The translations under genes and the position numbers were made by a program. Source: a virus (lineage: Duplodnaviria > Caudoviricetes). From it: a stretch of DNA of 55,491 bases. Below are positions 6,740-40,631 of this stretch, one piece after another. The notes under the pieces are model-generated. The model saw nothing but the letters and a program-made list of their open reading frames with translations, did not search any database and was not told the DNA's origin. The stretch covers positions 1 through 55,491 of IMG/VR virus record IMGVR_UViG_3300021964_004668; one strand, 5' to 3'. Positions within the stretch are counted from its first letter, which is position 1. The number at the start of each line of letters is the position of its first letter.

Positions 6740-7696
6740 ATGAAATATTCTCTTACGATATTCAAAAATACGTATGACAACCAGACTCACCGGAGGATGG
6801 AGTTCGATACGTGGGATAAGTTTGAGAACTTACTTTATGAACTATCCCAAAAGGAGGGTAGAAAAGGTGGAAGTAATTCTTCTGTGCTTATTAGTCCTGC
6901 TACTTATCACACCGATACTACACGGTCTAATAAAAGTGTTGCTCTATGGGGCGGTTGGGCTTGTCTTGATGTCGATGATTATGTGGTACGGGGTGATCCT
7001 GTTCTAACACCCGTCGAGTGTCTACAACAAGACCTACAAGAGAAGTTTGGTAGGTTCTACTATGTGTGTTACAATACCGCATCGTCAACCTACGAGCAAC
7101 CCAAGTTCCGTCTGGTGTTCCCTTTGACTCGTACTGTCGAGAGCAAAGATCTGGCACACTTCTGGTTTTCCATGAACAAACAGTTTGATGAACTTGGTGA
7201 CAAACAGACCAAAGACCTGTCCCGTATGTACTATGTCCCCGCACAGTATCCAGACGCATACAGTTTCATCTTCACTAATGATGGGGTCAAACTAGACCCT
7301 GATATGTTGATGAACAAGTACTCGTTTGTTGAACCGCAAGGTAAGACATTCATGGACAGACTCCCGCCTGAGTTGCAGAAGGCTGTGATCGAACATCGTA
7401 AGAACTCGCTGGACAATACGGATATCACTTGGACATCCTATCATGATTGTCCCTTCTTTCCCAAGCGACTGACCCTAGAGTATCGAGCAATCACTGGTAC
7501 TGGTTGGTATCACAAGATGTATCAGATCATGATTGCTATCGCGGGTAATGCTGTCTCCAAGGGTTATCCGATTACTGCGGGTCAGATTGCACAGATGTGT
7601 AGTGAGTTAGATCGCGAGACTGGTAACTGGTATGAAAACAGACCTCTAGATAAAGAGGCGGATAGAGCATTAGAATACATTTATAGGAACGGATGA
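6740..7696 (+). CDS. AEP-superfamily primase/primpol-like protein
   Basis: hhDhD motif (CLDVDD), YNTASS, KFRLVFPL, DLSRMYYVP, helical C-terminal domain; start placed at ATG 6740. Confidence 0.6.
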   Translation: MKYSLTIFKNTYDNQTHRRMEFDTWDKFENLLYELSQKEGRKGGSNSSVLISPATYHTDTTRSNKSVALWGGWACLDVDDYVVRGDPVLTPVECLQQDLQEKFGRFYYVCYNTASSTYEQPKFRLVFPLTRTVESKDLAHFWFSMNKQFDELGDKQTKDLSRMYYVPAQYPDAYSFIFTNDGVKLDPDMLMNKYSFVEPQGKTFMDRLPPELQKAVIEHRKNSLDNTDITWTSYHDCPFFPKRLTLEYRAITGTGWYHKMYQIMIAIAGNAVSKGYPITAGQIAQMCSELDRETGNWYENRPLDKEADRALEYIYRNG

Positions 7697-8634
7697 TGAG
7701 AATATTAATCACGGGTGCTGCCGGATTCATCGGCACTCACCTCATGGCTTCACTAATTGATGATGGGTTTGATGTCGTTGGTATCGACAACTTCAACGAC
7801 TTCTATGATCCCAATCTCAAGAAGGTCAGAGTTATTTCACATGGTCACCATGTGTTTCCGTGTGACCTCAAAAACTTTGATGAGTTGGATCGTGCATTCG
7901 CTGTAATCAAACCGGATATGGTAATGCACCTTGCTGCTCGTGCTAATGTACGAGACTCGTTTGGTAGGGAGGTGATGTATCACCAAGACAACATCGATGC
8001 TACTCAGAACTTGATCCAAGTCTGTAAGATGTATGATGTGAACAAGGTCATCTATGCATCCACTAGTTCAGTCTACGGTGGTACACCTATTCCTCCCACA
8101 GGCTGGACTGAGGATGAAGTGACCGGACACCAGTTGAATGCCTATGCCTACACCAAGTACATCAACGAATGTCAGTTCCGTATCTCTGGCCTGTACAATG
8201 TGGGACTTCGATTCTTCACAGTCTATGGCCCGTGGGGCAGACCAGACATGGCACTATTCCAATTTACCGATGCGATTGTCAAGGGTGAACCTATTGAGGC
8301 ATACAACTACGGTAAGATGAAACGAGATTTTACCTATATCGGTGATATTGTTCAGGGTATCAAACTCGCAATGTTTTCTGATACCGAGAACAATGAGATC
8401 TACAATATCGGTAGGGGCAAACAGGTTGAGTTGATGCACTTTATCGACTGCATAAGTAATGAACTGGGAAGAGAGGCAGATGTGGTTCTCGCTCCTCGTC
8501 ATCCCGCTGACACTCTAGAGACTTGGAGTGACACGACAAAACTGAGAGGACTTGGGTATCAACCCATCGTGAACATTGAGGAAGGTGTCGCCGCCTTTGT
8601 TCGATGGTATAAAGAATATTACGGAGTAAACTAA
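7693..8634 (+). CDS. NAD-dependent epimerase (UDP-glucuronate 4-epimerase-like)
   Basis: GAAGFIG, YASTSSVYG, YAYTK, FFTVYGPWGRPDMA, RDFTYIGD. Confidence 0.9.
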   Translation: MMRILITGAAGFIGTHLMASLIDDGFDVVGIDNFNDFYDPNLKKVRVISHGHHVFPCDLKNFDELDRAFAVIKPDMVMHLAARANVRDSFGREVMYHQDNIDATQNLIQVCKMYDVNKVIYASTSSVYGGTPIPPTGWTEDEVTGHQLNAYAYTKYINECQFRISGLYNVGLRFFTVYGPWGRPDMALFQFTDAIVKGEPIEAYNYGKMKRDFTYIGDIVQGIKLAMFSDTENNEIYNIGRGKQVELMHFIDCISNELGREADVVLAPRHPADTLETWSDTTKLRGLGYQPIVNIEEGVAAFVRWYKEYYGVN

Positions 8635-9546
8635 ATGGCTGATGATGGTATGCGAAACATTAATCCTGACGGAACTGTGCAGGAGGTAATGGGCAAATTG
8701 AAGATTGGTATTGTGGGTCACGGGTTTGTAGGTGGTGCGGTGGACTACGCATTCACTCACCCTGAGATCGACAAGTTCTATGTTGACCCCAAGTACAATA
8801 CTACGATTGATGACTTGGTCGAGTGGGGGCCTCACATCTCATTCATCTGTGCACCGACACCGATGGCTGACAGTGGATTCATCGATGCCTCTATCGTAGA
8901 AGATGCGGCACTGAAACTTCTTGAACACACCGAAGGTGGTGTCGTTGTCAAATCAACAATCACCCCCGATATCGTGGATCGATTGTACTCCTCTATCTTT
9001 GAAGAGGACATCAAACGACTGACAATCAATCCTGAGTTCTTGACTGAGTCTAGTGCAAAGGAAGCGTTTGTCAATGCTGACTATCATATTATTGGTGGAC
9101 ATCCCGATGCCTGTCAGGGACTTGCACAACTCTATGATGTGTACAGTTTGTGTAACGCAACTGAATTCATCTTCTGTTCTGGCCCTGAAGCGGCATTCAT
9201 CAAATATGGTGTGAACTCTTATCTTGCTATGAAAGTAACATACTTCAACCAGATGTATGATGCGATTCAGAAGTTTGGTTGTAACTATCCCACAGTCGCA
9301 AAGGCGATTGGTCGAGATCCTAGAATTGGTATCGGTCACACCCGTGTGCCTGGCTACGATGGTAAACGTGGATTCGGTGGTGCTTGTTTCCCCAAGGACA
9401 CCCGTGCATTTAATTTGTTTGATCCAGACTTGACATTGATTGAAAAATGTGTTAAGATAAACAACGATTATCGCAAACAATATGAACTAGATGACCGTGA
9501 GGAGTCAAACAATGTCGATTATGGACAAACTAAAGAAGAACAGTAA
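8635..9546 (+). CDS. UDP-glucose 6-dehydrogenase-like protein (short form, no C-terminal domain)
   Basis: GHGFVG, CAPTP, VKSTI, NPEFL, GFGGACFPKD. Confidence 0.88.
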   Translation: MADDGMRNINPDGTVQEVMGKLKIGIVGHGFVGGAVDYAFTHPEIDKFYVDPKYNTTIDDLVEWGPHISFICAPTPMADSGFIDASIVEDAALKLLEHTEGGVVVKSTITPDIVDRLYSSIFEEDIKRLTINPEFLTESSAKEAFVNADYHIIGGHPDACQGLAQLYDVYSLCNATEFIFCSGPEAAFIKYGVNSYLAMKVTYFNQMYDAIQKFGCNYPTVAKAIGRDPRIGIGHTRVPGYDGKRGFGGACFPKDTRAFNLFDPDLTLIEKCVKINNDYRKQYELDDREESNNVDYGQTKEEQ

Positions 9547-15736: not shown

Positions 15737-15879
15737 TGAAAAAACAAAAAGTCAAACCTCGTTTCGCAAAGGAACTGTTTGACAACGATAGTCCCTATGG
15801 ACATAAGGTTCAGCGGGATCGCACCAAATACAAGCGCAAGGACAAGTATCCCAGAGATAGTTGGGATACTACGCAGTAA
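15736..15879 (+). CDS. small basic protein, ArfA-like
   Basis: MKKQKVKPRFAKELFDNDSPYGHKVQRDRTKYKRKDKY; TGATG overlap. Confidence 0.45.
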   Translation: MKKQKVKPRFAKELFDNDSPYGHKVQRDRTKYKRKDKYPRDSWDTTQ

Positions 15880-16567
15880 AGAAGTTCCTTATGATAATCC
15901 CCGCAATGTCATGTCTGTGAAAACTGGCATTGTGGGCGTTATCATGATGTTGTTTGTGAAACCCCTCTCCGAAGGTTATCATCCCTAACCACCAATCACT
16001 GTGTGGTTCTCCTCCCCTATGTGAGTAACTAAACACAAGTGATCCTACCAACTTTGCCAGACCCGCTGGTGCGAGCCACGCATAGACAAGTGCGAATGGA
16101 TCAATAAGAGATAAGAAACATCCCCAGACGAACAGACATTGCCAATAGTACTTGACTTGTGCTCTGTACCTATCTACCTTCAGCAAGTCTCGAACATACT
16201 TGAAGTTGATTGTCGTGAACACTTGCAAGAAGTACGAGTAAAAATACCCCTTGTGAGTGGGAGAGTGTGGGTCTTTGTCGGTATCGGTGAACAGATGATG
16301 TTCCCTATGATTGGCAACCCAGACAATCGCGGGCCCTACCATCATAATGTGTGCAAAGAATAACATCACATATTCAAACCACAGAGGCGACTCAAAGGCC
16401 TTGTGAGATAGGTATCGGTGGTATCCCATGGTGATACCAAAGGTCATGATACCGAAATACATGACTCCGAAAATTGCCCACTGTACCGGAGTGGCATACA
16501 TTACCATGGGTATCAGACTAAAGATTGCGACAATCTGACCGATTAATAACTGTATGGGTAGACTCAT
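15869..16567 (-). CDS. membrane fatty-acid desaturase (delta-9 acyl-lipid type)
   Basis: His boxes HRYLSH, HREHH, HKQHH; TDTDKDPHSP; GEGFH; TM segments. Confidence 0.93.
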   Translation of the reverse strand: MSLPIQLLIGQIVAIFSLIPMVMYATPVQWAIFGVMYFGIMTFGITMGYHRYLSHKAFESPLWFEYVMLFFAHIMMVGPAIVWVANHREHHLFTDTDKDPHSPTHKGYFYSYFLQVFTTINFKYVRDLLKVDRYRAQVKYYWQCLFVWGCFLSLIDPFALVYAWLAPAGLAKLVGSLVFSYSHRGGEPHSDWWLGMITFGEGFHKQHHDNAHNASFHRHDIAGIIIRNFFTA

Positions 16568-16863
16568 TGATCTTTCCTATGGCTTCTGAATCGTCTGACC
16601 TTTCCATCGTAGAATAACATCTTGTACCATGGAGTGTTTCGTTTCATCTTAGGTAGGGTGTATTCCCATTTGGTTCCTTCCGGTGAAACCCAGACAACGT
16701 GATACCCTATCCATCGCTTGGATGCATACCATTCTGGTTTACCTCCGTGTTTGATCAACTGTTCCAATGTCCAGAAGTAACAGTTGTTTTTACTGCTGAA
16801 CAGTCGGACAGGCCATGACCAAAAGAAGACTACAAATAGAAATAGCGTAAACAGTTTCCTCAT
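16564..16863 (-). CDS. hypothetical membrane-anchored protein
   Basis: MRKLFTLFLFVVFFWSWP...; ATG 5 nt after a minus-strand TATAAATA; overlaps the desaturase start. Confidence 0.7.
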   Translation of the reverse strand: MRKLFTLFLFVVFFWSWPVRLFSSKNNCYFWTLEQLIKHGGKPEWYASKRWIGYHVVWVSPEGTKWEYTLPKMKRNTPWYKMLFYDGKVRRFRSHRKDQ

Positions 16864-16868
16864 GCAGA

Positions 16869-16886
16869 TATTTATACTTATAAATA
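16869..16886. promoter_or_regulatory. back-to-back divergent T4-type late promoters
   Basis: TATTTATA-CT-TATAAATA; each is followed 5 nt later by an ATG on its own strand. Confidence 0.85.
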
Positions 16887-16891
16887 CGAGC

Positions 16892-17173
16892 ATGGAACAA
16901 GCATTCACCCTAATAGAAGAATTAGGGTTTCCTATTGCATCCGCTTTGATTGGTGGATTCTTTATGTTTCTGACACTCAAGTACATTATGGACGGCGTGA
17001 TTGGTCAGGTGAACTCAATCAAAGGGATTGTGGGGAGCCTAGACAATCGCGTCAAGACTATGAATCATGATATGGTTCGTATGGATACGACTCTGTGTGT
17101 TGTTCTGGGAATAAGACCAGACCTCAATCGCATCAGTCGCGCTGACGGTAAAGAAGATGCAAGGCGTGATTGA
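16892..17173 (+). CDS. small membrane protein with coiled coil (YvrJ-like GFP motif), paralog 1
   Basis: ELGFPIASA + TM helix + LDNRVKTMNHDMVR. Confidence 0.75.
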   Translation: MEQAFTLIEELGFPIASALIGGFFMFLTLKYIMDGVIGQVNSIKGIVGSLDNRVKTMNHDMVRMDTTLCVVLGIRPDLNRISRADGKEDARRD

Positions 17174-17424
17174 TGGACTTCGTAGAAGTAGTAAAGTCAT
17201 TTGGGTTTCCGGTTGTCGCGGCAGTTGGTATGCTCTATATGATTTACTTTGTCTGGAAGACCATTACGGAAGAAGTTGAACAACAACTTGATGCGACTAT
17301 GGTGACTTTGATTGCATTGATTGACCGTGTCAGAATGCTGGATAATGATATCATTCGATTGCAACAGAAGTTAGATACGGCGATTGAAATGAAGAGGGTG
17401 AACGAGGAAGAAAATAATGAATAA
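17170..17424 (+). CDS. small membrane protein with coiled coil (YvrJ-like GFP motif), paralog 2
   Basis: SFGFPVVAA + TM helix + LIDRVRMLDNDIIR. Confidence 0.75.
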   Translation: MMDFVEVVKSFGFPVVAAVGMLYMIYFVWKTITEEVEQQLDATMVTLIALIDRVRMLDNDIIRLQQKLDTAIEMKRVNEEENNE

Positions 17425-17893
17425 TGTCTTGCGTACCTTTTATTTCAGAGCATTTGCGGCCGGCGTTGGAGTCGTATTGTTGTCGTTCTGTACTGAGTCG
17501 GTTGCTGCGCCTATCGAACATCAATTCAAATCCCCTTCATTCAGTGGGATCAATCAGTCGAGTCACTATCTGACCATTGAGAATCAAGAGACTTCTCGTA
17601 AGGAAGCCATTGAACAGGAACTTGAGGATCTTCAGGACGAGATCGAAAGAGACGCAGAGAATACGACTCTTGCGAAGTTTATACGTAACGTAGAAAGTAG
17701 GATTTACTCTACACTGTCGAGACAGATTGTAGATAGCATGTTCGGTGAGAACCCCAGTGATACTGGATCGTTCAACATCGAAGGAACAGGAATAACATAC
17801 GTCAAAAATGGCGATAGTGTGGAGTTAACGATAACGGATGAAGACGGTAGTACGACTGTCATTACTATCCCTATTGGTGATTTTGGGATCTAG
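17417..17893 (+). CDS. csgF: curli assembly protein CsgF-like
   Basis: Signal peptide, then HQFKSPSFSG (CsgF NPxFGG-like), LSRQIVDSMFG, ITDEDGSTTVITIP; adjacent to csgG. Confidence 0.85.
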   Translation: MNNVLRTFYFRAFAAGVGVVLLSFCTESVAAPIEHQFKSPSFSGINQSSHYLTIENQETSRKEAIEQELEDLQDEIERDAENTTLAKFIRNVESRIYSTLSRQIVDSMFGENPSDTGSFNIEGTGITYVKNGDSVELTITDEDGSTTVITIPIGDFGI

Positions 17894-18656
17894 TTGTGCT
17901 AGCATGAACTCTCAATTGGTTTTACCAAAACCAGAAGAGCCTAAAGTACAACTGACATTGCTTCAGAAAGAACTGAAGGATGTCTCAGCACCCACAAGGA
18001 AACCAACGGTAGCCGTTTATCAGTTTACCGATCAGACGGGACAGAAGAGACAGAACAGTAGTGGAGGGACTTCGTTTAGTTCCGCAGTGACCCAAGCGCC
18101 ATCAGTGTATCTGATCAGGGCACTGAAGCGTGCGGCTAACGGAGAGTTTTTCCGTGTCGTGGATCGTCAAGTTCTTGATCATGTGACCAGAGAACGACAA
18201 CTGATCAGGCAGACTCGACAGTCGTATGAAGGAGAAGAATCGAAAAAATTACCAGCATTGACGTTTGCTGGTATGATTATTGCAGGTGGTATCGTAGGTT
18301 TCGACACCTCTGTAGAGACGGGTGGGGCTGGTGCCAGATATCTTGGTATCGGATCTTCTCGTGAATATAGTGTTGACACAGTGACGATTAATATCAGACT
18401 TGTGTCGGTTGCAACTGGTGAGGTTCTGCTTGATGTAATAACAAGCAAGACCATACTATCTACCGCTTATGGTGGGGACGTATTTAGATTTATAGAACAG
18501 GGTACTGAACTGGTAGAAGTAGAGTCAGGAGTAACCAAAAACGAAAGCGTCTCTATCGCGACTCAACGTGCAATAGAGGCTGGTGTCTTAGAACTGATAT
18601 TGCAAGGAAGCGATAAGAAGTACTGGACTTTAATGGAGAAAACCAATGAGCGTTAG
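17838..18656 (+). CDS. csgG: curli secretion channel CsgG (lipoprotein)
   Basis: Lipoprotein signal ending GSSC; VAVYQFTDQTGQ, FSSAVTQ, ERQLIR, GGAGARYLGIG, RLVSVATGEVL. Confidence 0.93.
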   Translation: MKTVVRLSLLSLLVILGSSCASMNSQLVLPKPEEPKVQLTLLQKELKDVSAPTRKPTVAVYQFTDQTGQKRQNSSGGTSFSSAVTQAPSVYLIRALKRAANGEFFRVVDRQVLDHVTRERQLIRQTRQSYEGEESKKLPALTFAGMIIAGGIVGFDTSVETGGAGARYLGIGSSREYSVDTVTINIRLVSVATGEVLLDVITSKTILSTAYGGDVFRFIEQGTELVEVESGVTKNESVSIATQRAIEAGVLELILQGSDKKYWTLMEKTNER

Positions 18657-19374
18657 GCATACTAAGTTTGCCGTGATGTTCGTAATCAGCTTTGCGGCCG
18701 CAACACTTGCCGCAGACAATGAGATATACATTGATCAGATAGGAGATGGGTCATCCATCGATATCGTACAGGACGGTTCGGGTAATGTCATAGGTGGGTC
18801 TACTACAGACACCACCAAGATGGTTCTGAACGGCGCGAATATGAACTTCAGCGTCAATCAAACCGGAAGCGGCAATACCTTGATTGGTTCGGTCTTCGGT
18901 ACATCGACAATTGATATTGATGTGGCGGGATCGACAAACGACATTCTGTTCGATGTTGATAAAGACAACGTGTACGGTGCGACCAACGGAGACTATGTAA
19001 TCAACATAACTGGCGGTAACAATGATCTGGACTTCGATGTCGGATCACTAGATACTGCTAATGATCTAGACCTTGACTTTGTATTGGACGGTGACTTCAA
19101 CACGGCCGATGTGAATATCGATGCGTCTAGTCTGACCTTTAATCTAGATATTGTTGGAGATAATAATAATCTAGTCTATGATGGTAGTGGGTATGATGGT
19201 CACAGTTTTGTGATTAGTGGTTCTGGTAACTATAATGATATTACAGTAAACCAAGAATCTACCTTACAGAAAGATACGCTGGAGATAGATTTTAATGGTT
19301 CGGGAACAAGTACAACTGCTGCTACTATGTGCATCAGCCAGTCTGATTCCGGTCTCAACACTACATGCGAGTGA
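18646..19374 (+). CDS. secreted curlin-like beta-repeat protein
   Basis: Signal peptide; NEIYIDQIG, IVQDGSGN, VNQTGSGN and recurring GxxN; rich in G/N/D/S; follows csgG. Confidence 0.75.
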   Translation: MSVRHTKFAVMFVISFAAATLAADNEIYIDQIGDGSSIDIVQDGSGNVIGGSTTDTTKMVLNGANMNFSVNQTGSGNTLIGSVFGTSTIDIDVAGSTNDILFDVDKDNVYGATNGDYVINITGGNNDLDFDVGSLDTANDLDLDFVLDGDFNTADVNIDASSLTFNLDIVGDNNNLVYDGSGYDGHSFVISGSGNYNDITVNQESTLQKDTLEIDFNGSGTSTTAATMCISQSDSGLNTTCE

Positions 19375-20404
19375 TGTAGGGAACGTAGATCGTGCTGTCG
19401 GGTGGAGAGAGATCCTCAGAGATGAGGCCTCTATTCGTCCGAATACTGGCCAGGATGTAGTGTCTAAGGACGACCTTCGCACGGGCGAGGGTCGCCTTCA
19501 GGTGCGTTTTGTTGATGATTCCAAACTAAGAATGACAGAACATACCCGTATCGTGATCGATAATGTGGTATTTGATGATGATCCCAGTAAATCAGACCTT
19601 GCCATGACCTTTGCACAGGGTACAGCAAGGTTCATATCAGGTGAACTGGGTAAGGTCAATAAAGAGAATGTACGCCTACGAACCCCTACCGCATCCATCG
19701 GTATTCGGGGAACAGACTTCACAGTAACCGTAGATGAACTAGGGCAGACCCTCGTAGTCCTATTACCGGATGTCAACGGAGTTTCGTCTGGTGAGATCAT
19801 TGTGTCTACTATGGCTGGTGAGGTTATCTTGAACGAACCTTTCCAAGCGACCAACACTTATGTTGCCGAGGAACCACCAAGTAGTCCTGCCATCCTAGAT
19901 CTGACTCTGGACATGTTGAACAACATCATGATCATCAACCCACCCAAGAAGAAAGAAACTGAGGAAGAGTTATTGTTATCTACAAGGGCTGACCGAAACA
20001 TCAACCCCCTTGACATAGACTTCCTTGATCAAGACTTGTTACAAAACGAAGAGTTGGAACGAGACTATCTGGAGTTCACTGAGTTGGACATAAACTTCCT
20101 TGATGTTGAACTACTGGAGGATTTGCTTGAAGCCTTTGACAGTCTGGATGAAGAACTACTAAAGGAACGACAAAGCACCGGAGAACTGTCTCTAGAGGGT
20201 ACAGAAGAGGGGTTTGACCCCACTACTCAGTTTGCTACCATAGTAGAAGGTGACAAGGTAACGGTGAGACGAGAGGTCAATGACATCGCAGAGATCCGAG
20301 TAGACAAGGATGCATCCACCCTTATAAATATGTCTCAGGACGGTAAACAACTTGACCCAGTCAAGATAAATGGACAAGACACGGTGATAAACATAGTACA
20401 ATGA
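19295..20404 (+). CDS. FecR-domain periplasmic protein
   Basis: Signal-like N-terminus; DDLRTGEG, FVDDSKL, GTARFISG, LRTPTASIGIRGTDFTVTV; acidic C-terminal extension. Confidence 0.88.
   Translation: MVREQVQLLLLCASASLIPVSTLHASDVGNVDRAVGWREILRDEASIRPNTGQDVVSKDDLRTGEGRLQVRFVDDSKLRMTEHTRIVIDNVVFDDDPSKSDLAMTFAQGTARFISGELGKVNKENVRLRTPTASIGIRGTDFTVTVDELGQTLVVLLPDVNGVSSGEIIVSTMAGEVILNEPFQATNTYVAEEPPSSPAILDLTLDMLNNIMIINPPKKKETEEELLLSTRADRNINPLDIDFLDQDLLQNEELERDYLEFTELDINFLDVELLEDLLEAFDSLDEELLKERQSTGELSLEGTEEGFDPTTQFATIVEGDKVTVRREVNDIAEIRVDKDASTLINMSQDGKQLDPVKINGQDTVINIVQ
20323..20330 (+). promoter_or_regulatory. possible late promoter upstream of the cyclase gene
   Basis: TATAAATA 70 nt before ATG 20401, inside the FecR gene. 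Confidence 0.5.
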
Positions 20405-22224
20405 AGACATGGCACGTATTGGTCACTCTTATTGTCATGGTGACAATAAGGTTATTCGACCCCTTTCTATTGGAGAGTGCTAGACTCTCTTTCTTTGATT
20501 CTCTGCAAAGAGCCCAAGACACAAAACCGTCCGAGATCGTACTGGTAGACATAGACGAGAAGACCCTAGACAAACTAGGACAGTACCCCATTCCCCGTGA
20601 GTTACTGGCACAAGAGATTGACAAGATGGGTGAGAGCCTTATCGGTATCAACATCTTGTTTTCCGAGGAAGATAGATGGGGCGGAGACGATGCCTTTGCT
20701 GAGACTCTGACCTACAAACAGTCTGTGGTTGCTATCACACCATCTAATCGGACTAAAACCGATTACAGACCACCACGGATAGGAGTTGCCGCTTTTGGTG
20801 ACAAAGCGGTAGAATCTTTCCTCTCTCCTTCCGCTGGTATGTTGTTTGCACAGGATAAGATACACAACGCAGCATGGGGTTACGGGACAATATCTTCAAC
20901 GCAAGACATCGACGGCATTGTTCGTAGACAACCTCTTCTGGTAAACTTTGATGATCGACTGTACCCCGCCTTCGCACTGGACATACTCAGAGTCGCGGCA
21001 GGAGACATATCTTACCAGATATCCACGGATGACTATGGTATTGAGTTTGTCCGTATCCCAGCCTTCAAATCGATCATGACAGACAGTTCGGGTAATGTGA
21101 ACATTGCATACTGGAATGAGTTCAAGCGATACTCACTGGTGGATATGGATCAGATCCCAGATGGATCAATCGCGATCATGGGTGCAACCTTCGAGGGATC
21201 TAATGTGGTGTCCACACCCATGGGAGCCATGTACCCGCACGACATTCAAGCAAACTTACTCAAGACCATGATCGACGGAGTAGTGATCAAGAGACCGGAT
21301 GAATTTATTTTATATGAGCTCTTGACAACTATTGTTTTTTGTGTTATACTCTTAGCTCTGCTCAGGGCGGCTAGTATACCAGTATCCGGTATGATATTTG
21401 GTATTATGGTTGCTGGGATTTACATCTTTTCGACAGACACTTTTGCAACCTACTTCTATCTAGTCGATCCGGTATTTCCTATTCTCACTCTAGTGTTGGT
21501 GTTCGCACACGGTTCCTTTGTACAGTTCTATACTCAGTTCAAAGCAAAACAGATGATCAAGGGACAATTTGGTACATACCTATCTCCCGACATGGTTGAC
21601 ATGCTGGCTAAAGATCCGAGTCTGATGAAACTGGGTGGAGAGAAGAAGGAGATGTCCTTTCTCTTCATGGACATTGTTGGGTTTACGCCCATCTCAGAAC
21701 ACTATAAGAACAATGACGATCCTGAAGGACTGGTCGCATTGATCAACAACTATCTCAATGAAATGACAAATATTATTTTGCAAAATGGTGGAACCATTGA
21801 TAAATACATGGGCGATTGCATCATGGCATTCTGGAACGCACCACTACCTTGTAACAACCACGCAGAGATGGCCGTCAAATCTGCAATAGAGATAGAGCAA
21901 AAAACTAATGTACTTAGACAACGATTTCTTGACGAAGGTCTACCCCCCATCAATGTCGGTACTGGCGTCAATACAGGTGACTGCATTGTTGGCAATATGG
22001 GTAGTGAATCTCGTTTTGACTACTCCGTCATTGGGGATGCAGTCAACCTTGCTGCCCGCCTTGAAGCAACCGCAGCCCGTGGTGACTACATCGACAACAA
22101 AACCATCTACTCCAGCTTTACCAAAGATCAACTTATAGATATCAAGTCCAAGCATATTGGACAGATCAAGGTAAAAGGTAAGGAAGAGATGATAGACATC
22201 TATACTCATGATACAGATAGTTGA
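20401..22224 (+). CDS. CHASE2-domain membrane class III adenylate cyclase
   Basis: TM; CHASE2 (IVLVDIDE, DIDGIVRR, TPMG..YPHDIQA); three TMs; FMDIVGFT, DKYMGDCIMAFW, YSVIGDAVNLAARLE, VKGK. Confidence 0.95.
   Translation: MKTWHVLVTLIVMVTIRLFDPFLLESARLSFFDSLQRAQDTKPSEIVLVDIDEKTLDKLGQYPIPRELLAQEIDKMGESLIGINILFSEEDRWGGDDAFAETLTYKQSVVAITPSNRTKTDYRPPRIGVAAFGDKAVESFLSPSAGMLFAQDKIHNAAWGYGTISSTQDIDGIVRRQPLLVNFDDRLYPAFALDILRVAAGDISYQISTDDYGIEFVRIPAFKSIMTDSSGNVNIAYWNEFKRYSLVDMDQIPDGSIAIMGATFEGSNVVSTPMGAMYPHDIQANLLKTMIDGVVIKRPDEFILYELLTTIVFCVILLALLRAASIPVSGMIFGIMVAGIYIFSTDTFATYFYLVDPVFPILTLVLVFAHGSFVQFYTQFKAKQMIKGQFGTYLSPDMVDMLAKDPSLMKLGGEKKEMSFLFMDIVGFTPISEHYKNNDDPEGLVALINNYLNEMTNIILQNGGTIDKYMGDCIMAFWNAPLPCNNHAEMAVKSAIEIEQKTNVLRQRFLDEGLPPINVGTGVNTGDCIVGNMGSESRFDYSVIGDAVNLAARLEATAARGDYIDNKTIYSSFTKDQLIDIKSKHIGQIKVKGKEEMIDIYTHDTDS
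21322..21350 (+). promoter_or_regulatory. possible sigma70-type promoter inside the cyclase gene
   Basis: TTGACA-17nt-TATACT. Confidence 0.4.
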
Positions 22225-22708
22225 CAACTTTCTGGAACCTGATGCCTTTGATGAACTGGTACAGGCATATCATGAGTGCCGTATGTACAGTGCATATGAC
22301 TATGGTGAGAGACGAGGTGGTGCATACTATGCGGTGGCAGACTGGATAGATTGTTACCGTAGCGATAACCTTAGATATGCGTTTGACGATATCTCGACAC
22401 AAATCGATGAGGTGCTAGGTGTCAAAGTCCAGTTGATGACGTTTTTCCGACACCCCCTAGAGACCTTCCCTGTCCTAGAGGGCCGTGGTGCGAAGATTCC
22501 GCAACACATTGACCGTAACTTCGAGAGGTCTGGTGTACTCTACATGCTTGGTACGGAGGGTCAGGGGACTACCGTAAAGGATGAGTATGTTGAATGGGTA
22601 GAGAATCGTGCTATTGCCTTTGATGCCCAAACCCTCCACAATCCACACTTCGGTGGAGCAGACCGTATCTCCCTCACATTTTTCGGACTTAATACGAAAA
22701 AGTTATAA
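22208..22708 (+). CDS. 2OG-Fe(II) oxygenase-like protein
   Basis: IVDNFL start, HID, GVLYM, ENRAIAFD...H, R.SLTFF. Confidence 0.65.
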   Translation: MIQIVDNFLEPDAFDELVQAYHECRMYSAYDYGERRGGAYYAVADWIDCYRSDNLRYAFDDISTQIDEVLGVKVQLMTFFRHPLETFPVLEGRGAKIPQHIDRNFERSGVLYMLGTEGQGTTVKDEYVEWVENRAIAFDAQTLHNPHFGGADRISLTFFGLNTKKL

Positions 22709-28707: not shown

Positions 28708-29781
28708 ATGCAGAAGTTTAATACCTTTCTGTCTGAGGGATTAAAAGCAGAGGATTATGAAGCATCTATCGTGATGGGATTCTACGAACTTACTGGTAGA
28801 CCCATTACTGATAATCCTCTAAAGTACGGTATCTCTGATAAAGTATTCAATATTATTAAGGGTAATCCTAAAGCATTAGACGCGGGTCGCAAGATCGCTG
28901 AGTCGGTGTTAAAACAATACCCCGCATTGAAGAACAAAGAAGCAGAACAGTATGGTCGTGCAAAGGCGACACTGACTAACTTCTGGAAATCTCATGGTGC
29001 GTCTGACATTACACCCAAGACAGATGTTTTGATTGGTGATATGCGATTCTCTGTTAAGATTGGTATCGCACAGTTGATGTCTGGCGGTAAAGCAGAATCG
29101 ACTGCCACCTTCGAGGCCGCAACCAAGAACTCCAACCCCGAACTCAAGAAATCCCCACAATACAAAGCAACGGTTGATGTCCTAGAAGGATTTGTAAAGA
29201 ACACTCTCGCACCATCTCAATTAAGACCCTTGATTAAGTCTGGTACTGACCCTGTAGTAAACAAGGCAGAGAAAGCACATAAAGACTGTATGGAAGAGTT
29301 GGGTAAACTGTTCAACGAATCTAAATCATTCAAGGTTGAGTTTGCACGAGAGGCGATGTCTGGATACGAGAAGTTTGGAAGAACCTCAAACGCTGCCGCT
29401 GAGTTTATGTTAGTTGCCTCGGCCGATGGTGGTACAGTTAAAATACATTCGGTAGATGATGATGCTTACTGTTTGAAGATTGCAAATGCAATGAAACTAC
29501 AGGCAAGATTCAAGACATCATCTCGTAAAATCAAAAAGGTTAAGACTGGTGAGTACAACTACTGGTCAGTTATATCTCTTATTGTAGACTCTATGCAAGA
29601 CTCTGAGGAACTCAGTGAGAGTATAGAGTTACAGGAATTAAAACTGTTAAAAACTATTCGTGGGTGGATGTCTAAGACTTGGAATAAGGTTACGGCATTC
29701 TATAAAAAAGGTGTTGACAAACTAAAGTCATTTCTTGGGGCAGAACCAGACCCGTCATTCCGAAATAAGATAAAATTCTAA
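28708..29781 (+). CDS. putative internal head protein with nuclease-like motif
   Basis: CTS-like start MQKFNTFLSE; TPKTDVLIGDMRFSVK resembles a PD-(D/E)xK-type core. Confidence 0.55.
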   Translation: MQKFNTFLSEGLKAEDYEASIVMGFYELTGRPITDNPLKYGISDKVFNIIKGNPKALDAGRKIAESVLKQYPALKNKEAEQYGRAKATLTNFWKSHGASDITPKTDVLIGDMRFSVKIGIAQLMSGGKAESTATFEAATKNSNPELKKSPQYKATVDVLEGFVKNTLAPSQLRPLIKSGTDPVVNKAEKAHKDCMEELGKLFNESKSFKVEFAREAMSGYEKFGRTSNAAAEFMLVASADGGTVKIHSVDDDAYCLKIANAMKLQARFKTSSRKIKKVKTGEYNYWSVISLIVDSMQDSEELSESIELQELKLLKTIRGWMSKTWNKVTAFYKKGVDKLKSFLGAEPDPSFRNKIKF

Positions 29782-31001
29782 TGAACTTCACCGATTTCAT
29801 AACAGAACAGAAGAACACTCACATGACCCACATTGAGGACAAGGTTCTCTATGGTGGTGTGAGTGGTACGCGACAGGCCATCAATGCGTTACGCGAGTTG
29901 CGTGACATGTTGGCGGGTCAGACGAGTTCTAAACTATCTACCAAGTGGGATGGTGCTCCCGCAATCTTCTGCGGTCAAGATCCCACCGATGGCGAGTTCT
30001 TTGTTGCCAAGAAGGGTGTGTTCGCAAAGAACCCCAAGGTCTATAAGACTGCGGCGGAGATCGATGGTGACATGTCTGGTGACCTTGCAGACAAGATGAA
30101 ACTTGCATTAAAACATTTGCCAGAACTTGGTATAAAGGGTATAATTCAGGGTGACTTCTTGTTCTCAAAACCAGATCTCAGCACCGAGACTATTGAGGGT
30201 CAGAAGTATGTGACCTTCCACCCTAACACGATTATCTATGCTGTACCCTATGATCAGGCAGATGCACTGCGTAAGGCCAAGATCGGTATCGTATGGCACA
30301 CCACCTACACGGGCAGTTCGTTTGAGTCACTGAAAGCATCCTATGGTGTGGACGTATCCAAGTTCAAGAACTCCGCAAACGTCTGGTCACAAGACGCCAT
30401 GTTGCGTGATGTGTCCGGTGCGACAATGAATAAGAGAGAGACTGCCGAAGTGACGAAGCATCTGTCCGATGCGGGTAAGATCTTCAATAAGATCTCCGGT
30501 ACGACACTGCGTGAGTTAGAACGTAATCAAGACCTTGCTCAACTTATTGAACAGTACAATAACACTTTTGTGCGGCAACAAATGGTCATTTCTAACACTA
30601 ATACGCACGTAACAGGTTTAATCAAGTGGTTGAATGATAAGTTTCAGAAAGAGATGGATAAGAGAAGTACCGCTGCGGGTAAGAAGACCCAGCAGGACAA
30701 ACTGGATGCACTCATGAAATTCTTCTCTCCGAAGAACAAAAAGAATCTAGTTGCAATGTTTGATTTGCAAAAAAGTATTGTTCTTGCGAAGTTAAAACTT
30801 ATAAATAAACTTAATAGCATATCTTCATATGACACTTTTGTTCAGACTAAGAAAGGTTATAAGGTTAGAACGGGTGCAGAAGGATTTGTTGCTATTGACA
30901 AATTAGGTGGTGATGCGGTCAAGTTGGTTGACCGTCTAGAATTTTCGTATAATAACTTCAGTCCAGATATACTGAAGGGATGGGATAAACCAAAGAGGTA
31001 A
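29781..31001 (+). CDS. RNA-ligase-like nucleotidyltransferase (DUF6267-like), putative internal protein
   Basis: MNFTDFITE start; KWDGAP (motif I), QGDFLF, EGFV (IV), KLVDR (V). Confidence 0.7.
   Translation: MNFTDFITEQKNTHMTHIEDKVLYGGVSGTRQAINALRELRDMLAGQTSSKLSTKWDGAPAIFCGQDPTDGEFFVAKKGVFAKNPKVYKTAAEIDGDMSGDLADKMKLALKHLPELGIKGIIQGDFLFSKPDLSTETIEGQKYVTFHPNTIIYAVPYDQADALRKAKIGIVWHTTYTGSSFESLKASYGVDVSKFKNSANVWSQDAMLRDVSGATMNKRETAEVTKHLSDAGKIFNKISGTTLRELERNQDLAQLIEQYNNTFVRQQMVISNTNTHVTGLIKWLNDKFQKEMDKRSTAAGKKTQQDKLDALMKFFSPKNKKNLVAMFDLQKSIVLAKLKLINKLNSISSYDTFVQTKKGYKVRTGAEGFVAIDKLGGDAVKLVDRLEFSYNNFSPDILKGWDKPKR
30800..30807 (+). promoter_or_regulatory. possible internal late promoter
   Basis: TATAAATA about 200 nt before ATG 31004. 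Confidence 0.5.
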
Positions 31002-31003
31002 AC

Positions 31004-31480
31004 ATGGCTAAACCAATGAGCCTAAAGACATTCCTGAACGTGGATTACACCCAGACGGGCGATCCGCAACAAGCGTACAACGCAAAGAAGCGCAAGCGAG
31101 ATAGCGGTGCGGGAACTGATGCTGAGTATTCATCAACGAATCCCCCGAATGAGGCACTCAACGTACAACAACGTATGAAGTTGTCTCGCTCTCTCAAAAA
31201 GAACAAAGCAAAGATTGCTATGGGTCGCAAACGTGCTGCCCGTAAAGTTGCTAATGTTGACACTCTAAAGAAACGTGCACAGAAACAGGCACGTATGCAG
31301 TTCCTCAAGAAGATTACCAAAGACACCCCCAAGGACGAATTGTCTCTGTCCCGTAGACAGGACATTGAGAAACGTCTAGATAAGATGAAACCCAAGATCG
31401 ACAAACTTGCACGGAAGTTGCTTCCTCAAGTTCGTAAGGGTGAACTTGAAAAGAAACGAGGTGGTCAAAAGAGTGATTAA
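31004..31480 (+). CDS. highly basic hypothetical protein
   Basis: K/R-rich; GAGGT SD. Confidence 0.75.
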   Translation: MAKPMSLKTFLNVDYTQTGDPQQAYNAKKRKRDSGAGTDAEYSSTNPPNEALNVQQRMKLSRSLKKNKAKIAMGRKRAARKVANVDTLKKRAQKQARMQFLKKITKDTPKDELSLSRRQDIEKRLDKMKPKIDKLARKLLPQVRKGELEKKRGGQKSD

Positions 31481-33446
31481 GAATTTCAAATCCTATCTGG
31501 TCGAAGAGGCTAAAGAGGTTTATTTTACCTTTGGTAGAATGAATCCGCCTACTATCGGGCATGGGAAAGTATTAGAGACTATCGCAAAGAAGGCTGGTGG
31601 CGCTGACTGGAAGGTCTATGTGTCTCAGTCTGTTGGCCCCAAAGATCCTCTATCCTACTCCGACAAGGTCAAACACCTACGCAAGATGTTCCCCAAGTAT
31701 GGTCGTAACATCATGGTGGACAAGGGTGTTAAGAATGTATTTGACATTGCTGCCAAGTTATACGATCAAGGATACAAACGAATCACCATGGTAGTCGGAG
31801 AAGACCGTCTACGTGAGTTTGAAGTCCTACTGAACAAATACAACGGTAAGAAAGCACGCCACGGGTTCTATAACTTTGAGTCCATCAATATCGTGTCTGC
31901 GGGTCGCAGAGATCCCGATGCAGAAGGTGTCGAAGGTATGTCTGCGTCCAAGCAACGTGCCAATGCCAAAGAGAACGATTACCAATCATTTACTCAGGGT
32001 GTTCCCAAAGGTATGTCCGACAAGGACACTCGTAGGTTGTTCAATGATGTGCGTAAGGGTATGGGTCTCAAGGAAGAGACCTCATTCAAGCGTCACATTG
32101 AGATGCCTACTGTTTCCGAAACAAGAGAACAGTTTGTCAAGGGTGAACTCTTTGAGTTGGGTGATACTGTTGTTATCAAAGAAAGCGAAGAGGTCGGTGT
32201 CGTATCTCATCTGGGCGCAAACTACGTTATCGTAGAGTCCGGTGACCGTAAGATGCGTAAGTGGTTGGATGCGGTAGAACTGGTCGAGAAGAAGTTGACC
32301 CCCGCTGAGATCAAGAAACGCGAAGAGATTGCGAAGGCAATGGAACGCGAGAACCCCGACATGCCGATGGACAAGAAGATGGCCATCGCGACTGCAACCG
32401 CAAAACGAGTTGCAGAGAAACAAGATCCTGACATCAAGGACAGAGAAGGGACTCAACCCGCACGTTATCACAAGGGACTCAAGAAGTCTACTAAGGCGAA
32501 ACGTGACGCACACTTCAAGAAGCATGGCAAGAAGGCGGATGATGATCCGTCTGCGTACAAACCTGCTCCTGGCGATAAGACCGCTAAAACCAAACCGTCC
32601 AAGTACACCAAAGCATTCAAAGACATGTATGAGGAAGTATCTCAGAAACAACTCAATGACCTTGAGAAGTTTGCTGATAGACTACTCAAGAAGTTCGATG
32701 TCGATGTTGAGTTCACACGTCACTTCGCTGACCGTATGAATGACAAACGCAACAAACCTGCTATCACAGTTGCAGAATTGCAACGTGTGTTTAAGAAGAT
32801 TGCGAAGAACAAAGCAAAGAACATTAGACAGAATCCTGATAGTGAAGCAGTCATTAAAGACTTACAGATGGATTTGAACTTACCTGTTGTTATCAAGTAT
32901 GACCGCAACAAGGATGAGTTCGAGGTAGTCAACAAGACTATCATGCGTAAGAAAGATTTCAAGACTACTTCTAAGACCATCACCACCGAAGAGAATGGTG
33001 CTGGAGATGAGGGTACTGATAAGTTAGTCAAGAAGTACAAGAAAGATACTCCTCTAGAAGAAAGAAAGTTTATTGACTTTACAAACCCTGTATTTGGTGA
33101 TATACTAGACAAATTAGTTAATGGTGACCTCTACAAGAAAGTGATCCGTAAGTATCTAGATGCAAGACGTAAGAATCCTAAACAGGGTCAAGCATTGTTG
33201 GTCAAGATTGCTCGTCAATATGGTGTCCCCGCGAAACAGACTCAGAATCTGTTCTTCAAACTCTTGGATAAGGGTGCCCTACCTAAGCACCTTGACTGGA
33301 GAGACAAGGCATTTGGTGAGGATGCTGTCCAACAAGCACGAGATGCAATCGCTCGTGAGAAAGAACAAGACAAGGCGAAGCATGATCGTATTCTAGATCG
33401 TGCGCGACTGGCCCGAGCAAAGGCAAAGAATAGAGAAACCAAATGA
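31473..33446 (+). CDS. HIGH-family nucleotidyltransferase fused to several small domains
   Basis: GTG start after GAGGT; FGRMNPPTIGH, DPLSY, VGEDR, MSASKQR; C-terminal modules separated by xxE sites. Confidence 0.85.
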   Translation: MIKNFKSYLVEEAKEVYFTFGRMNPPTIGHGKVLETIAKKAGGADWKVYVSQSVGPKDPLSYSDKVKHLRKMFPKYGRNIMVDKGVKNVFDIAAKLYDQGYKRITMVVGEDRLREFEVLLNKYNGKKARHGFYNFESINIVSAGRRDPDAEGVEGMSASKQRANAKENDYQSFTQGVPKGMSDKDTRRLFNDVRKGMGLKEETSFKRHIEMPTVSETREQFVKGELFELGDTVVIKESEEVGVVSHLGANYVIVESGDRKMRKWLDAVELVEKKLTPAEIKKREEIAKAMERENPDMPMDKKMAIATATAKRVAEKQDPDIKDREGTQPARYHKGLKKSTKAKRDAHFKKHGKKADDDPSAYKPAPGDKTAKTKPSKYTKAFKDMYEEVSQKQLNDLEKFADRLLKKFDVDVEFTRHFADRMNDKRNKPAITVAELQRVFKKIAKNKAKNIRQNPDSEAVIKDLQMDLNLPVVIKYDRNKDEFEVVNKTIMRKKDFKTTSKTITTEENGAGDEGTDKLVKKYKKDTPLEERKFIDFTNPVFGDILDKLVNGDLYKKVIRKYLDARRKNPKQGQALLVKIARQYGVPAKQTQNLFFKLLDKGALPKHLDWRDKAFGEDAVQQARDAIAREKEQDKAKHDRILDRARLARAKAKNRETK

Positions 33447-39654: not shown

Positions 39655-40023
39655 ATGATGAAACTCACTAAAGACAATGTGACGGTGTATGCCGCCCAAA
39701 ACTATCACAATCCTAGATGCATTGATAGTGAAGAGTTTTTTGAAGACCTAAAGAAGTTCAAGTACGTCAAACGATTACTCAATCGTTATCGTGATACTGG
39801 CGTACTTTCAGAACGTCTCATCCTCAATCATCTTATCGTAATATTTAATGTGTTCGGTTACGAGGCAGGACTAAACATCCTTGAACTCAAGATCGAACTT
39901 GAACACTGGGGTACATTGAAACCCTTTCTAATATTTCTCAGCGCAATCAAGAACACCGAATATACCAACATTGAGATGGATAATTTGGTAATTGAACGAC
40001 TGCGTGAGATCAAAAATGTATAA
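39655..40023 (+). CDS. T4-like phage hypothetical protein
   Basis: EEFFEDLKKFKYVKRLL, ERLILNHLIVIFNVFG; TATAAGTA 5 nt upstream. Confidence 0.8.
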   Translation: MMKLTKDNVTVYAAQNYHNPRCIDSEEFFEDLKKFKYVKRLLNRYRDTGVLSERLILNHLIVIFNVFGYEAGLNILELKIELEHWGTLKPFLIFLSAIKNTEYTNIEMDNLVIERLREIKNV

Positions 40024-40026
40024 ATA
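40019..40026 (+). promoter_or_regulatory. T4-type late promoter (leaderless geometry)
   Basis: TATAAATA-GACTT-ATG. Confidence 0.8.
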
Positions 40027-40031
40027 GACTT

Positions 40032-40631
40032 ATGGGATTACTCAAATCAGCAGCAGACCTCGTCTATACGATCCGGTTCTTGAAACTGTTAGTGACTCCG
40101 TTTACGGACACTGAAGCATACAAGGCAGGTATTGTAGATGAAGACGGGAAGAAACGCAAGGACTTCAATACGAATAGTACTGATGACCGTGAAGCGTATC
40201 GCAGCCATTACACTCCATTCCACCGTCTGGTATTCAACCTCAAACGACTCATGGCAAAGGTGCCTGGCGGACAGTCAGTGGTCGCACGATATGGTGCAGC
40301 ACTCGCACTGATCAAAGAGAATGGTCAACTATCAAATTCTAAACTCATGCAGATCCACAAAGAGACAGGCATAGACATCCTTGATGTACTCGCAGAAGAC
40401 TCTCAATGGTTTATGTTGGAAGACAAACAACTAGGGCCAGGCGTCTATCGATTCAAACACGATACCATCACTATAGACTGTGAAGACATAGTGAAGAAAG
40501 ATGACAGGGTACGAGTCTTTGAAAGTGACTCAAGTCCAGTTCATGAAGTTTTAGGTATTGATATATACAAGGGAATGCACCTGAACTCTAAACAGTGGGT
40601 ATACTTCTCATCAGGAGAGATTACGCGATGA
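40032..40631 (+). CDS. T4-like phage hypothetical protein
   Basis: DLVYTIRFLKLLVTPF, GIVDEDG, YTPFHRLVFNLKR. Confidence 0.8.
   Translation: MGLLKSAADLVYTIRFLKLLVTPFTDTEAYKAGIVDEDGKKRKDFNTNSTDDREAYRSHYTPFHRLVFNLKRLMAKVPGGQSVVARYGAALALIKENGQLSNSKLMQIHKETGIDILDVLAEDSQWFMLEDKQLGPGVYRFKHDTITIDCEDIVKKDDRVRVFESDSSPVHEVLGIDIYKGMHLNSKQWVYFSSGEITR

Follow-up and report, generated by a model that had tools for sequence, protein, structure and literature searches.

In this study, a 55.5-kb viral record of IMG/VR (IMGVR_UViG_3300021964_004668) was analysed; the whole stretch of 55,491 nucleotides is referred to here as the window. It contains a cassette of seven co-oriented genes at 16892-22224 on the + strand, which encode two small membrane proteins, CsgF, CsgG, a secreted curlin-like repeat protein, a periplasmic FecR-domain protein and a putative receptor adenylate cyclase with a CHASE2 domain. 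Judged by where the relatives of these genes lie in bacteria, the cassette is chimeric: it combines a module for type VIII secretion with one for a receptor cyclase. Taken as a whole, we read it as a conserved late envelope cassette, carried by marine T4-like phages, in which a curli unit is joined to a FecR/CHASE2 receptor pair with cyclic AMP (cAMP) as its output, and we give this reading about an even chance of being right. The architecture of the cassette was already published in 2022, and the window adds a member from a different T4-like lineage. What is added here is the identification of the last two genes with a bacterial FecR/CHASE2 pair, and of separate bacterial contexts for the two halves of the cassette.

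All seven overlapping genes proposed in the initial annotation of this DNA are present where it had placed them, and the identities it gave them agree with Pfam and PHROG family scans. Successive genes overlap, in order, by 4, 8, 56, 11, 80 and 4 nt. A megablast search of the cassette against GenBank phages returned no match; relatives there are found at the protein level only. The window has a G+C content of about 44%, an estimated completeness of about 34% of a genome, and T4-type replication genes, including those for a gp43-like DNA polymerase, UvsX, a DnaB-like helicase, ThyX, ribonucleotide reductase and PhoH. Its DNA polymerase is most similar to that of Phage C48C1 (64% identity), with about 48% identity to those of cyanomyophages. 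From its sequence, the phage is assigned to a T4-like lineage distinct from the published pelagiphage carriers of the cassette.

The last gene of the cassette (20401-22224, +) encodes the receptor adenylate cyclase, with matches to CHASE2 (PF05226, E 1e-38, 133.6 bits) and to Guanylate_cyc (PF00211, E 2e-19). After a first transmembrane helix (residues 5-25), the protein is predicted to have CHASE2 in the periplasm (about 25-300), then a hydrophobic block (300-376), and its class III catalytic domain (415-598) in the cytoplasm. Its catalytic motifs are intact, as had been claimed: D424, K468, D472, N549 and R553 are invariant across 46 phage and bacterial sequences, and S542 is kept in at least 90% of 13 phage sequences. 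The best solved relative is the Pseudomonas aeruginosa adenylate cyclase CyaB (3r5g, E 5e-37), in which K468 aligns with Lys and S542 with Thr. A pair of Lys and Thr or Ser marks class IIIb adenylate cyclases. The product of the phage enzyme is thus presumably cAMP. Neither the window nor any of five related phage genomes, among them a 100% complete one, yielded a cNMP_binding domain; cAMP would therefore most likely act on host proteins, or through a phage receptor of unrecognised type. A complex prediction for the CHASE2 domain (residues 24-300) with the mature FecR protein (26-369) scored 0.00 against a mark of 0.32, a result that counts neither way.

To place the receptor-cyclase half, the best 80 of more than 600 bacterial matches to the cyclase were taken, one genome per species, with about 10 kb on each side. 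These cyclases are 27-47% identical to the phage protein and mostly alphaproteobacterial. Hidden Markov models (HMMs) of the phage families detected csgG, csgF, the repeat gene and the small genes in none of the 80 loci (0/80). A FecR-domain open reading frame (ORF) was found near 27 of the 80 cyclases, a type I ABC exporter near 22, an HlyD adaptor near 21, a BTLCP protease near 10 and a TolC-like protein near 8. Of the 48 loci whose flanks are complete, FecR is present in 20, ABC together with HlyD in 15, and either in 27; the assignments were confirmed with Pfam. In many loci, the FecR domain belongs to a protein of 900-1500 aa with cadherin-like, Big_9, FG-GAP or RTX repeats, in which it occupies about residues 145-240; this position makes it the N-terminal part of a likely type I-secreted adhesin. 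A typical bacterial order is adhesin, ABC, HlyD, cyclase (for example L090 and L135). In a second CHASE2 sample, which comprised the first 20 listed matches from Pseudomonadota with coordinates beyond 30 kb, one per genome, and is biased towards the best-scoring CHASE2 domains, mostly cyclases, a FecR-domain ORF was found within 2 kb of 9/20 and within 150 nt of 7/20. Genes for ABC, HlyD, TolC and BTLCP proteins were found in none of the 83 viral loci scanned.

The secretion half has a bacterial context of its own. Close CsgG relatives (E <= 1e-48) are present in 7 of 401 sampled alphaproteobacterial genomes, and these loci contain csgF in every case (7/7) and curlin-repeat genes in 6/7; within the same distance of about 10 kb on each side, fecR, the cyclase gene and the small genes are present in none (0/7). 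Because the bacterial cyclase loci lack csgFG and the bacterial csgG loci lack fecR and the cyclase gene, the phage cassette is regarded as a chimera of two bacterial modules, to which phage-specific genes are added. FecR and CHASE2, to go by these neighbourhoods, are a bacterial sensor pair. Related arrangements have been described: according to the accessible text of PMC5192318, a LysM-FecR protein is encoded beside a CHASE2 histidine kinase in Burkholderia ('BiofilmReg') and P. aeruginosa. In Sinorhizobium meliloti, the FecR-domain protein SMc02177 is among the cAMP/Clr targets and the CHASE2 cyclase CyaD1 belongs to the same pathway; SMc02177 is dispensable for plant-signal perception (PMC5498481, accessible text). 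The Pfam text quoted in the accessible part of PMC5192318 gives the signal sensed by CHASE2 domains as unknown.

Several bacterial loci deserve a mention in their own right. Alphaproteobacterial clusters of BTLCP protease, giant adhesin with N-terminal FecR, ABC, HlyD and CHASE2 cyclase are found at L090, L135, L129, L107, L100, L131, L149 and others. No description of clusters that join a type I secretion system (T1SS) adhesin to a CHASE2 cyclase was found in the literature searched, whose coverage excluded subscription journals. The adhesin loci with a BTLCP protease can presumably be likened to LapA-LapG. Candidate cAMP readers are encoded near some bacterial CHASE2 cyclases, namely an HlyD protein with an N-terminal cNMP-binding domain (L098:8267-9982) and Na+/H+ exchangers with a C-terminal cNMP-binding domain (L101:7153-9642 and L155:12230-14752). 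The cNMP-binding HlyD was rejected as a general cAMP reader in the bacterial loci, since it occurs in one locus only (L098).

The phage loci show how firmly the two halves are joined. The best 80 of 151 IMG/VR CsgG relatives (45-100% identity) were searched by tblastn with the window proteins; only loci with enough flank were counted, and near-duplicates are included, so that the loci are not independent. Upstream of csgG, csgF was found in 77/77 evaluable loci, small gene B in 76/76 and small gene A in 70/70. Downstream, the repeat gene was found in 73/73 and fecR in 62/62, and the cyclase gene in 42/43 loci with at least 6 kb downstream and 50/52 with at least 3 kb. Linkage of fecR and the cyclase gene to csgFG in related phages, the point on which the initial annotation had staked its proposal, thus holds. 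The gene order is common to Pelagibacter phage HTVC008M and Methylophilales phage Melnitz, whose cyclases are 47% and 37% identical, respectively, to that of the window. A FastTree analysis of 91 rows (every one of the 75 bacterial rows with a length of 550 aa or more, together with 16 of 39 phage rows selected across the clades) recovered the phage cyclases as one clade with support 100, with a polytomy as the sister group; by this tree, the phage cyclases share one origin. The junction between fecR and the cyclase gene measures 0-17 nt in the window's clade and 400-1900 nt elsewhere, where it holds a second curlin-repeat/PA14 gene (HTVC008M, Melnitz) or Mom-family, NifU-like or SNase genes. 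In these other clades the junction is an insertion hot spot (L066:10391-11369, L039:7567-7962, L001:5637-6962).

The FecR-domain protein (19295-20404, +; 369 aa) matches PF04773 (E 7e-12, 46 bits), the sole Pfam family found in it, and is predicted to be periplasmic. A 25-residue signal-like N-terminal helix is followed by the FecR beta-domain (about 27-210), a linker (about 210-300) and a C-terminal beta-domain (300-369). The linker is acidic, conserved and rich in Leu and Asp in a 41-sequence alignment, and is poorly modelled; the AlphaFold2 (AF2) model as a whole has a mean confidence (pLDDT) of 70. The FecR beta-domain resembles the cell-surface signalling domain of PupR (6ovk; Foldseek E 1e-4; Z 14.6, root-mean-square deviation (rmsd) 2.6, 131 residues). 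With a middling score, residues 25-119 of the model also resemble the domain by which an RTX adhesin is anchored at the cell surface (5ix9; Z 7.2, rmsd 3.1, 73 residues). Pfam, hydrophobicity and the model revealed no anti-sigma domain, and no transmembrane anchor beyond the signal-like helix. No STN-domain transducer was matched in the window, and Sigma70_r2, the mark of a sigma factor of the extracytoplasmic function (ECF) type, was matched neither in the window nor in the complete relative G405; weak Sigma70_r2 matches in HTVC008M and Melnitz lie far from the cassette. The periplasmic relay proposed in the initial annotation is not supported on these points: the protein lacks the anti-sigma and transmembrane parts of true FecR relays, and nothing was found to join the pore or the fibre to FecR. 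The further suggestions of that annotation, namely sensing of superinfection and effects on lysis timing or on host CRP output, are speculative.

Among the genes of the curli module, csgG (17838-18656, +) encodes a predicted outer-membrane lipoprotein pore. It matches PF03783 above the cut-off (E 2e-50) and aligns over its full length with Escherichia coli CsgG (3x2r, E 2e-44), including the lipobox Cys. The constriction loop differs from that of E. coli by a two-residue insertion and by changes of Tyr to Asn and Asn to Ser; Phe is kept. The CsgF homolog (17417-17893, +) has a signal peptide and matches PF10614 (E 5e-18; 65.9 bits against a cut-off of 25.8) and phrog_35372; a phmmer search against PDB sequences gave no match at E <= 1. 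CsgE (PF10627) was not matched in the window, which holds about 34% of a genome, in agreement with the initial annotation; CsgD and CsgC were not searched for. CsgE and CsgD do not define the wider type VIII secretion system (T8SS) family, since alphaproteobacterial curli operons lack both, according to the accessible text of PMC9599517.

The repeat protein (18646-19374, +; 242 aa) has a signal peptide and is rich in D, G, T, N and S. Its homolog in Melnitz passes the Curlin_rpt threshold (8.6e-6, 26 bits), and the HMM of the phage repeat family matches the Curlin_rpt proteins encoded beside csgFG in 6/7 alphaproteobacterial loci. The AF2 model (pLDDT 83; predicted template modelling score 0.80) consists of stacked pairs of short strands. 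Foldseek found nothing in PDB at E <= 0.001; in a VIA structural search, Pontibacter CsgA (8c50) ranked at the top (Z 17.6, 207 residues aligned, 26% identity), and the E. coli CsgA fibril was matched at Z 10.8. The protein is read as a divergent curlin with a predicted beta-solenoid fold. The evidence for the curlin-like secreted protein of the initial annotation thus lies at the level of the family, and the window protein itself falls under the Pfam cut-off for Curlin_rpt.

The first two genes encode small single-pass membrane proteins, A (16892-17173, +; 93 aa) and B (17170-17424, +; 84 aa), which match the same profile, phrog_18771 (E 3.5e-30 and 5.8e-27, respectively). Each has one hydrophobic helix with a charged tail after it; in A, the hydrophobic segment at residues 11-37 is a predicted N-terminal transmembrane helix, followed by a likely coiled coil. 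Searches of Pfam, NCBIfam and PADLOC, carried up to E 5, returned no family for either. Protein A has 2202 homologs, and among the 120 matches listed none is named beyond 'hypothetical protein'; the nearest named ESM Atlas cluster is YvrJ, at 0.90, which is a lead only. As for the claim that A and B are paralogs, the common profile and single-copy genes in some phage clades that match both support it, and BLASTP gives no alignment between A and B. The published label of histidine kinase was ruled out for both, since they have neither HisKA/DHp nor HATPase_c and are only 84-93 aa long; as far as their sequences tell, neither is a histidine kinase. Both probably have an accessory role in the cassette.

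A T4-type late-promoter motif, TATAAATA, is read directly at 16879-16886 (+) and ends 5 nt before the first ATG of the cassette. The window contains 10 copies of the motif where 1.57 would be expected, a count reached in 0/100 shuffles. In 53/75 related loci the motif lies no more than 150 nt ahead of the first small gene, mostly starting 13 nt before the ATG. Compared with a background rate of 0.03 per 150 nt, it precedes small gene B, csgG, the repeat gene or fecR in 0 of 75-80 related loci, csgF in 2/79 and the cyclase gene in 12/59. This pattern agrees with a single late transcription unit in which a second start is optional. The single promoter of the initial annotation is thus found before the first gene, and is not strictly single, because a second TATAAATA lies at 20323-20330 (+), within the 3' end of fecR and 70 nt before the cyclase ATG. 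In one metatranscriptome run, which contains 5% of the sampled words, contigs of 85-151 nt lie on csgG (18351-18625) and fecR (19315-19665), with DNA carry-over possible; the pieces on the cyclase domain are chimeric, and no transcript ends can be read from the run.

In the mechanism that we propose, the first module would be a minimal T8SS, with CsgG as a lipoprotein pore in the outer membrane, CsgF as its cap, and the Sec-exported curlin-repeat beta-solenoid as the likely substrate of CsgG. In the second module, the soluble FecR-fold protein of the periplasm would serve the CHASE2 domain, which also lies there, as a partner or a ligand. The inner-membrane class IIIb adenylate cyclase would in this way translate the condition of the periplasm or of the secretion apparatus into cytoplasmic cAMP, and cAMP would most likely act on host proteins. 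The two small proteins, always first in the operon, would be coiled-coil proteins of the inner membrane. The contact of FecR with CHASE2, the secretion of the repeat protein through CsgG and the timing of expression are steps that we infer. The sensing step from FecR to CHASE2 is reasonable in view of the gene neighbourhoods, and a direct partnership is the simplest reading, since the two families recur as neighbours in bacteria. The position of FecR at the end of bacterial adhesins and the weak likeness to 5ix9 suggest that the pair monitors a secretion substrate; in bacteria, the FecR fold would belong to that end of the adhesin which is the last to be exported from the cell.

A more specific version of this idea is tentative, and we consider it rather unlikely: FecR and CHASE2 may be a sensor of secretion state that has been plugged into two secretion systems, the T1SS adhesins of bacteria and the T8SS pore of phages. 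In alphaproteobacteria, the FecR module of the adhesin, likely retained in the periplasm, would be reported by the adjacent CHASE2 cyclase. In the phage, cAMP would report whether the pore or fibre is assembled, occupied or pulled from outside, and the acidic linker of FecR may substitute for CsgE by threading or docking at the CsgG channel. If this were true, it would supply the first ligand class for CHASE2, and phages would possess a second-messenger system that senses contact or the envelope.

A number of results weigh against the joined curli and receptor cassette. The cyclase domain also matches the PycC profiles of Pycsar (E 7e-24), as expected from the common fold, and the nucleotide that is made is therefore not proven. 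Of the CHASE2 cyclases in bacteria, only between about a third and a half are accompanied by FecR, so that the pairing is not obligatory. Among the phages, the accessible text of PMC9599517 describes the adenylate cyclase as present 'frequently', not always, and at one locus (L082) fecR is kept with no cyclase gene in the 5 kb downstream, where other genes are found. Since FecR is more constant than the cyclase in phage loci, it may serve the secretion module or the pore itself, for example by replacing CsgE. For the repeat protein, the match to Curlin_rpt (E 0.015, 15.7 bits) is under the 20.7-bit cut-off, and the match to CsgA 8c50 has an rmsd of 9.0 and is tied within 1 Z with SufD-like beta-helices. 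Melnitz cultures do not clump, according to the accessible text of PMC9004378, which speaks against abundant adhesive fibres. The late timing of the cassette, finally, is read from the motif alone.

Other explanations were weighed against this one. The cassette may be a curli machine for aggregation, serving 'sibling capture' or superinfection shielding, with FecR and the cyclase as only indirect regulators of its expression. This proposal, made in PMC7029224 and PMC9599517 (accessible texts), agrees with the universal presence of CsgG, CsgF and a curlin-like subunit in the cluster and with the homology of the repeat family to Curlin_rpt proteins beside bacterial csgFG. It leaves unexplained why a membrane receptor cyclase with an extracytoplasmic sensor is retained, and it is not evident why a late operon that has a promoter motif of its own would need a cAMP-dependent transcription factor; the FecR protein, being secreted and without an anti-sigma part, cannot act by the FecI route. 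Neither CsgD nor CsgE is found in the published clusters, as far as their accessible text goes, and CsgE is not matched in the window; the Melnitz cultures without clumping (PMC9004378, accessible text) count against aggregation as well. We therefore regard aggregation as unlikely, though worth keeping in view. It is quite unlikely that the cassette is concerned with the pore only, that is, with a modified CsgGF channel for lysis timing in the manner of a pinholin or secretin, or for import of nutrients or cofactors, which the other proteins would gate. The altered constriction loop of CsgG and the late expression suggested by the motif would suit such a channel, as would the missing match in the window to CsgE, the usual periplasmic gate, which the pelagiphage clusters also lack (PMC9599517, accessible text). 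PMC9004378 makes the case for a pore of this kind in Melnitz, while PMC7029224 and PMC9599517 propose import (accessible texts). An outer-membrane pore, however, cannot depolarise the inner membrane, the gene for the curlin-like substrate is conserved like the pore (73/73), and there is no evidence on gating.

If instead the cyclase were an independent enzyme of counter-defence or host takeover, for example by flooding with cyclic nucleotides, its linkage to csgFG and fecR would reflect co-transfer only. The Pycsar matches, the unrelated inserts (Mom, NifU, SNase) tolerated at the fecR-cyclase junction and the separate TATAAATA before the cyclase gene in 12/59 loci are compatible with this. 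CHASE2, however, is kept in 13/13 aligned phage cyclases, which implies that the activity is under regulation and not constitutive; CyaB, the nearest relative with a solved structure, is an adenylate cyclase, and the linkage holds down to 45% CsgG identity, so that independence of the cyclase appears improbable. A regulator of iron (ferric citrate), suggested in the accessible text of PMC9599517, draws on the Pfam name of FecR only and is scarcely credible: the N-terminus of the protein is a signal peptide instead of an anti-sigma domain with a transmembrane helix, STN has no match in the window and an ECF-type sigma none in the window or in G405, and the bacterial relatives of the FecR domain are in adhesins and beside CHASE2 sensors.

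The cluster was reported in pelagiphage podoviruses and myoviruses in PMC9599517 (mSystems 2022). As its accessible text has it, the order is 'HK', CsgF, CsgG, CsgA/B, FecR, an optional second CsgA/B, and adenylate cyclase; FecR, HK and AC are outside bacterial curli operons; CsgE and CsgD are absent from the pelagiphage clusters, as they are from alphaproteobacterial curli operons; and aggregation, import or superinfection defence are proposed as functions. In the same text, the small proteins are labelled histidine kinases, FecR is taken for an iron regulator, and the word CHASE2 does not occur. PMC7029224 (2020) and PMC9004378 (2022) treat phage csgF and csgG; in their accessible text, the words cyclase, FecR and CHASE2 are absent. 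No phage work pairing CHASE2 with FecR was found in the literature searched, subscription journals being outside its coverage. Such cassettes are abundant in ocean phages, as seen from the 2202 relatives in the small-protein family and the 151 IMG/VR contigs with a close CsgG, and occupy about 5 kb of a streamlined genome. With the present assignment, the vague label of 'regulator' becomes a concrete question, namely whether the FecR-fold protein or the secretion state controls cAMP synthesis. This question bears on the long-standing gap in knowledge of the CHASE2 signal and on how bacteria monitor type I-secreted adhesins.

The surroundings of the cassette were also inspected. A back-to-back copy of TATAAATA outside the cassette (16869-16876, -) would serve a divergent pair of genes, for a small membrane protein (16564-16863, -) and a fatty-acid desaturase (15869-16567, -; PF00487, E 4e-11); only some of the related loci keep the pair upstream of the cassette. 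The divergent motif pair sits in a 28-nt intergenic gap. The motif lies exactly 5 nt before the ATG at three genes (16869-16892; 16861-16876, -; 40019-40034), a spacing that leaves no space for a Shine-Dalgarno leader, and the late mRNAs of this phage may therefore be leaderless. Downstream, a 166-aa gene (22208-22708) overlaps the cyclase stop by 17 nt and may be on the same transcript as the cassette. It follows the cyclase gene in many related loci, with 40-95% identity, and has a weak PHROG match (the 'endonuclease V' family, E 1.5e-9) and no Pfam family. Elsewhere in the window, sugar-nucleotide and surface-modification genes are found at 7693-9546, 29781-33446 and 53809-55326, including those for an epimerase, a UDP-glucose dehydrogenase-like protein, cytidylyltransferases and a Nol-like carbamoyltransferase.

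The cassette can be compared with several known systems. With FecA-FecR-FecI signalling it shares the fold of the FecR beta-domain (PupR, Z 14.6) and the idea of a signal that crosses the periplasm; it differs in that the phage FecR protein has no anti-sigma domain or membrane anchor and that STN transducer and ECF sigma matches are lacking, and its output would be cAMP, whereas the output of FecIRA is transcription. Like the E. coli curli system CsgA-G, it has a full-length CsgG with the lipobox Cys, a member of the CsgF family and a repeat subunit with a predicted beta-solenoid fold; unlike it, the window has no CsgE match, an altered CsgG constriction loop and a very divergent subunit. The gene order is the same as in the pelagiphage T8SS/Curli cluster of HTVC008M and Melnitz, although in the window's clade fecR and the cyclase gene adjoin, with a gap of 0 nt and no second curlin/PA14 gene between them, and the labels of histidine kinase and iron regulator in the accessible text of the pelagiphage paper are not supported here. 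As in the bacterial FecR/CHASE2 pairs of Burkholderia, P. aeruginosa and S. meliloti, in so far as the accessible texts describe them, a secreted FecR-domain protein is encoded beside a membrane sensor with a periplasmic CHASE2 domain; the output domain and the partners differ from those of the phage. In the bacterial T1SS/RTX adhesin loci, FecR is part of the adhesin, whereas in the phage it is a separate protein and secretion would be by a T8SS; in both, a CHASE2 cyclase and a FecR fold accompany a secretion system for a repeat-rich surface protein.

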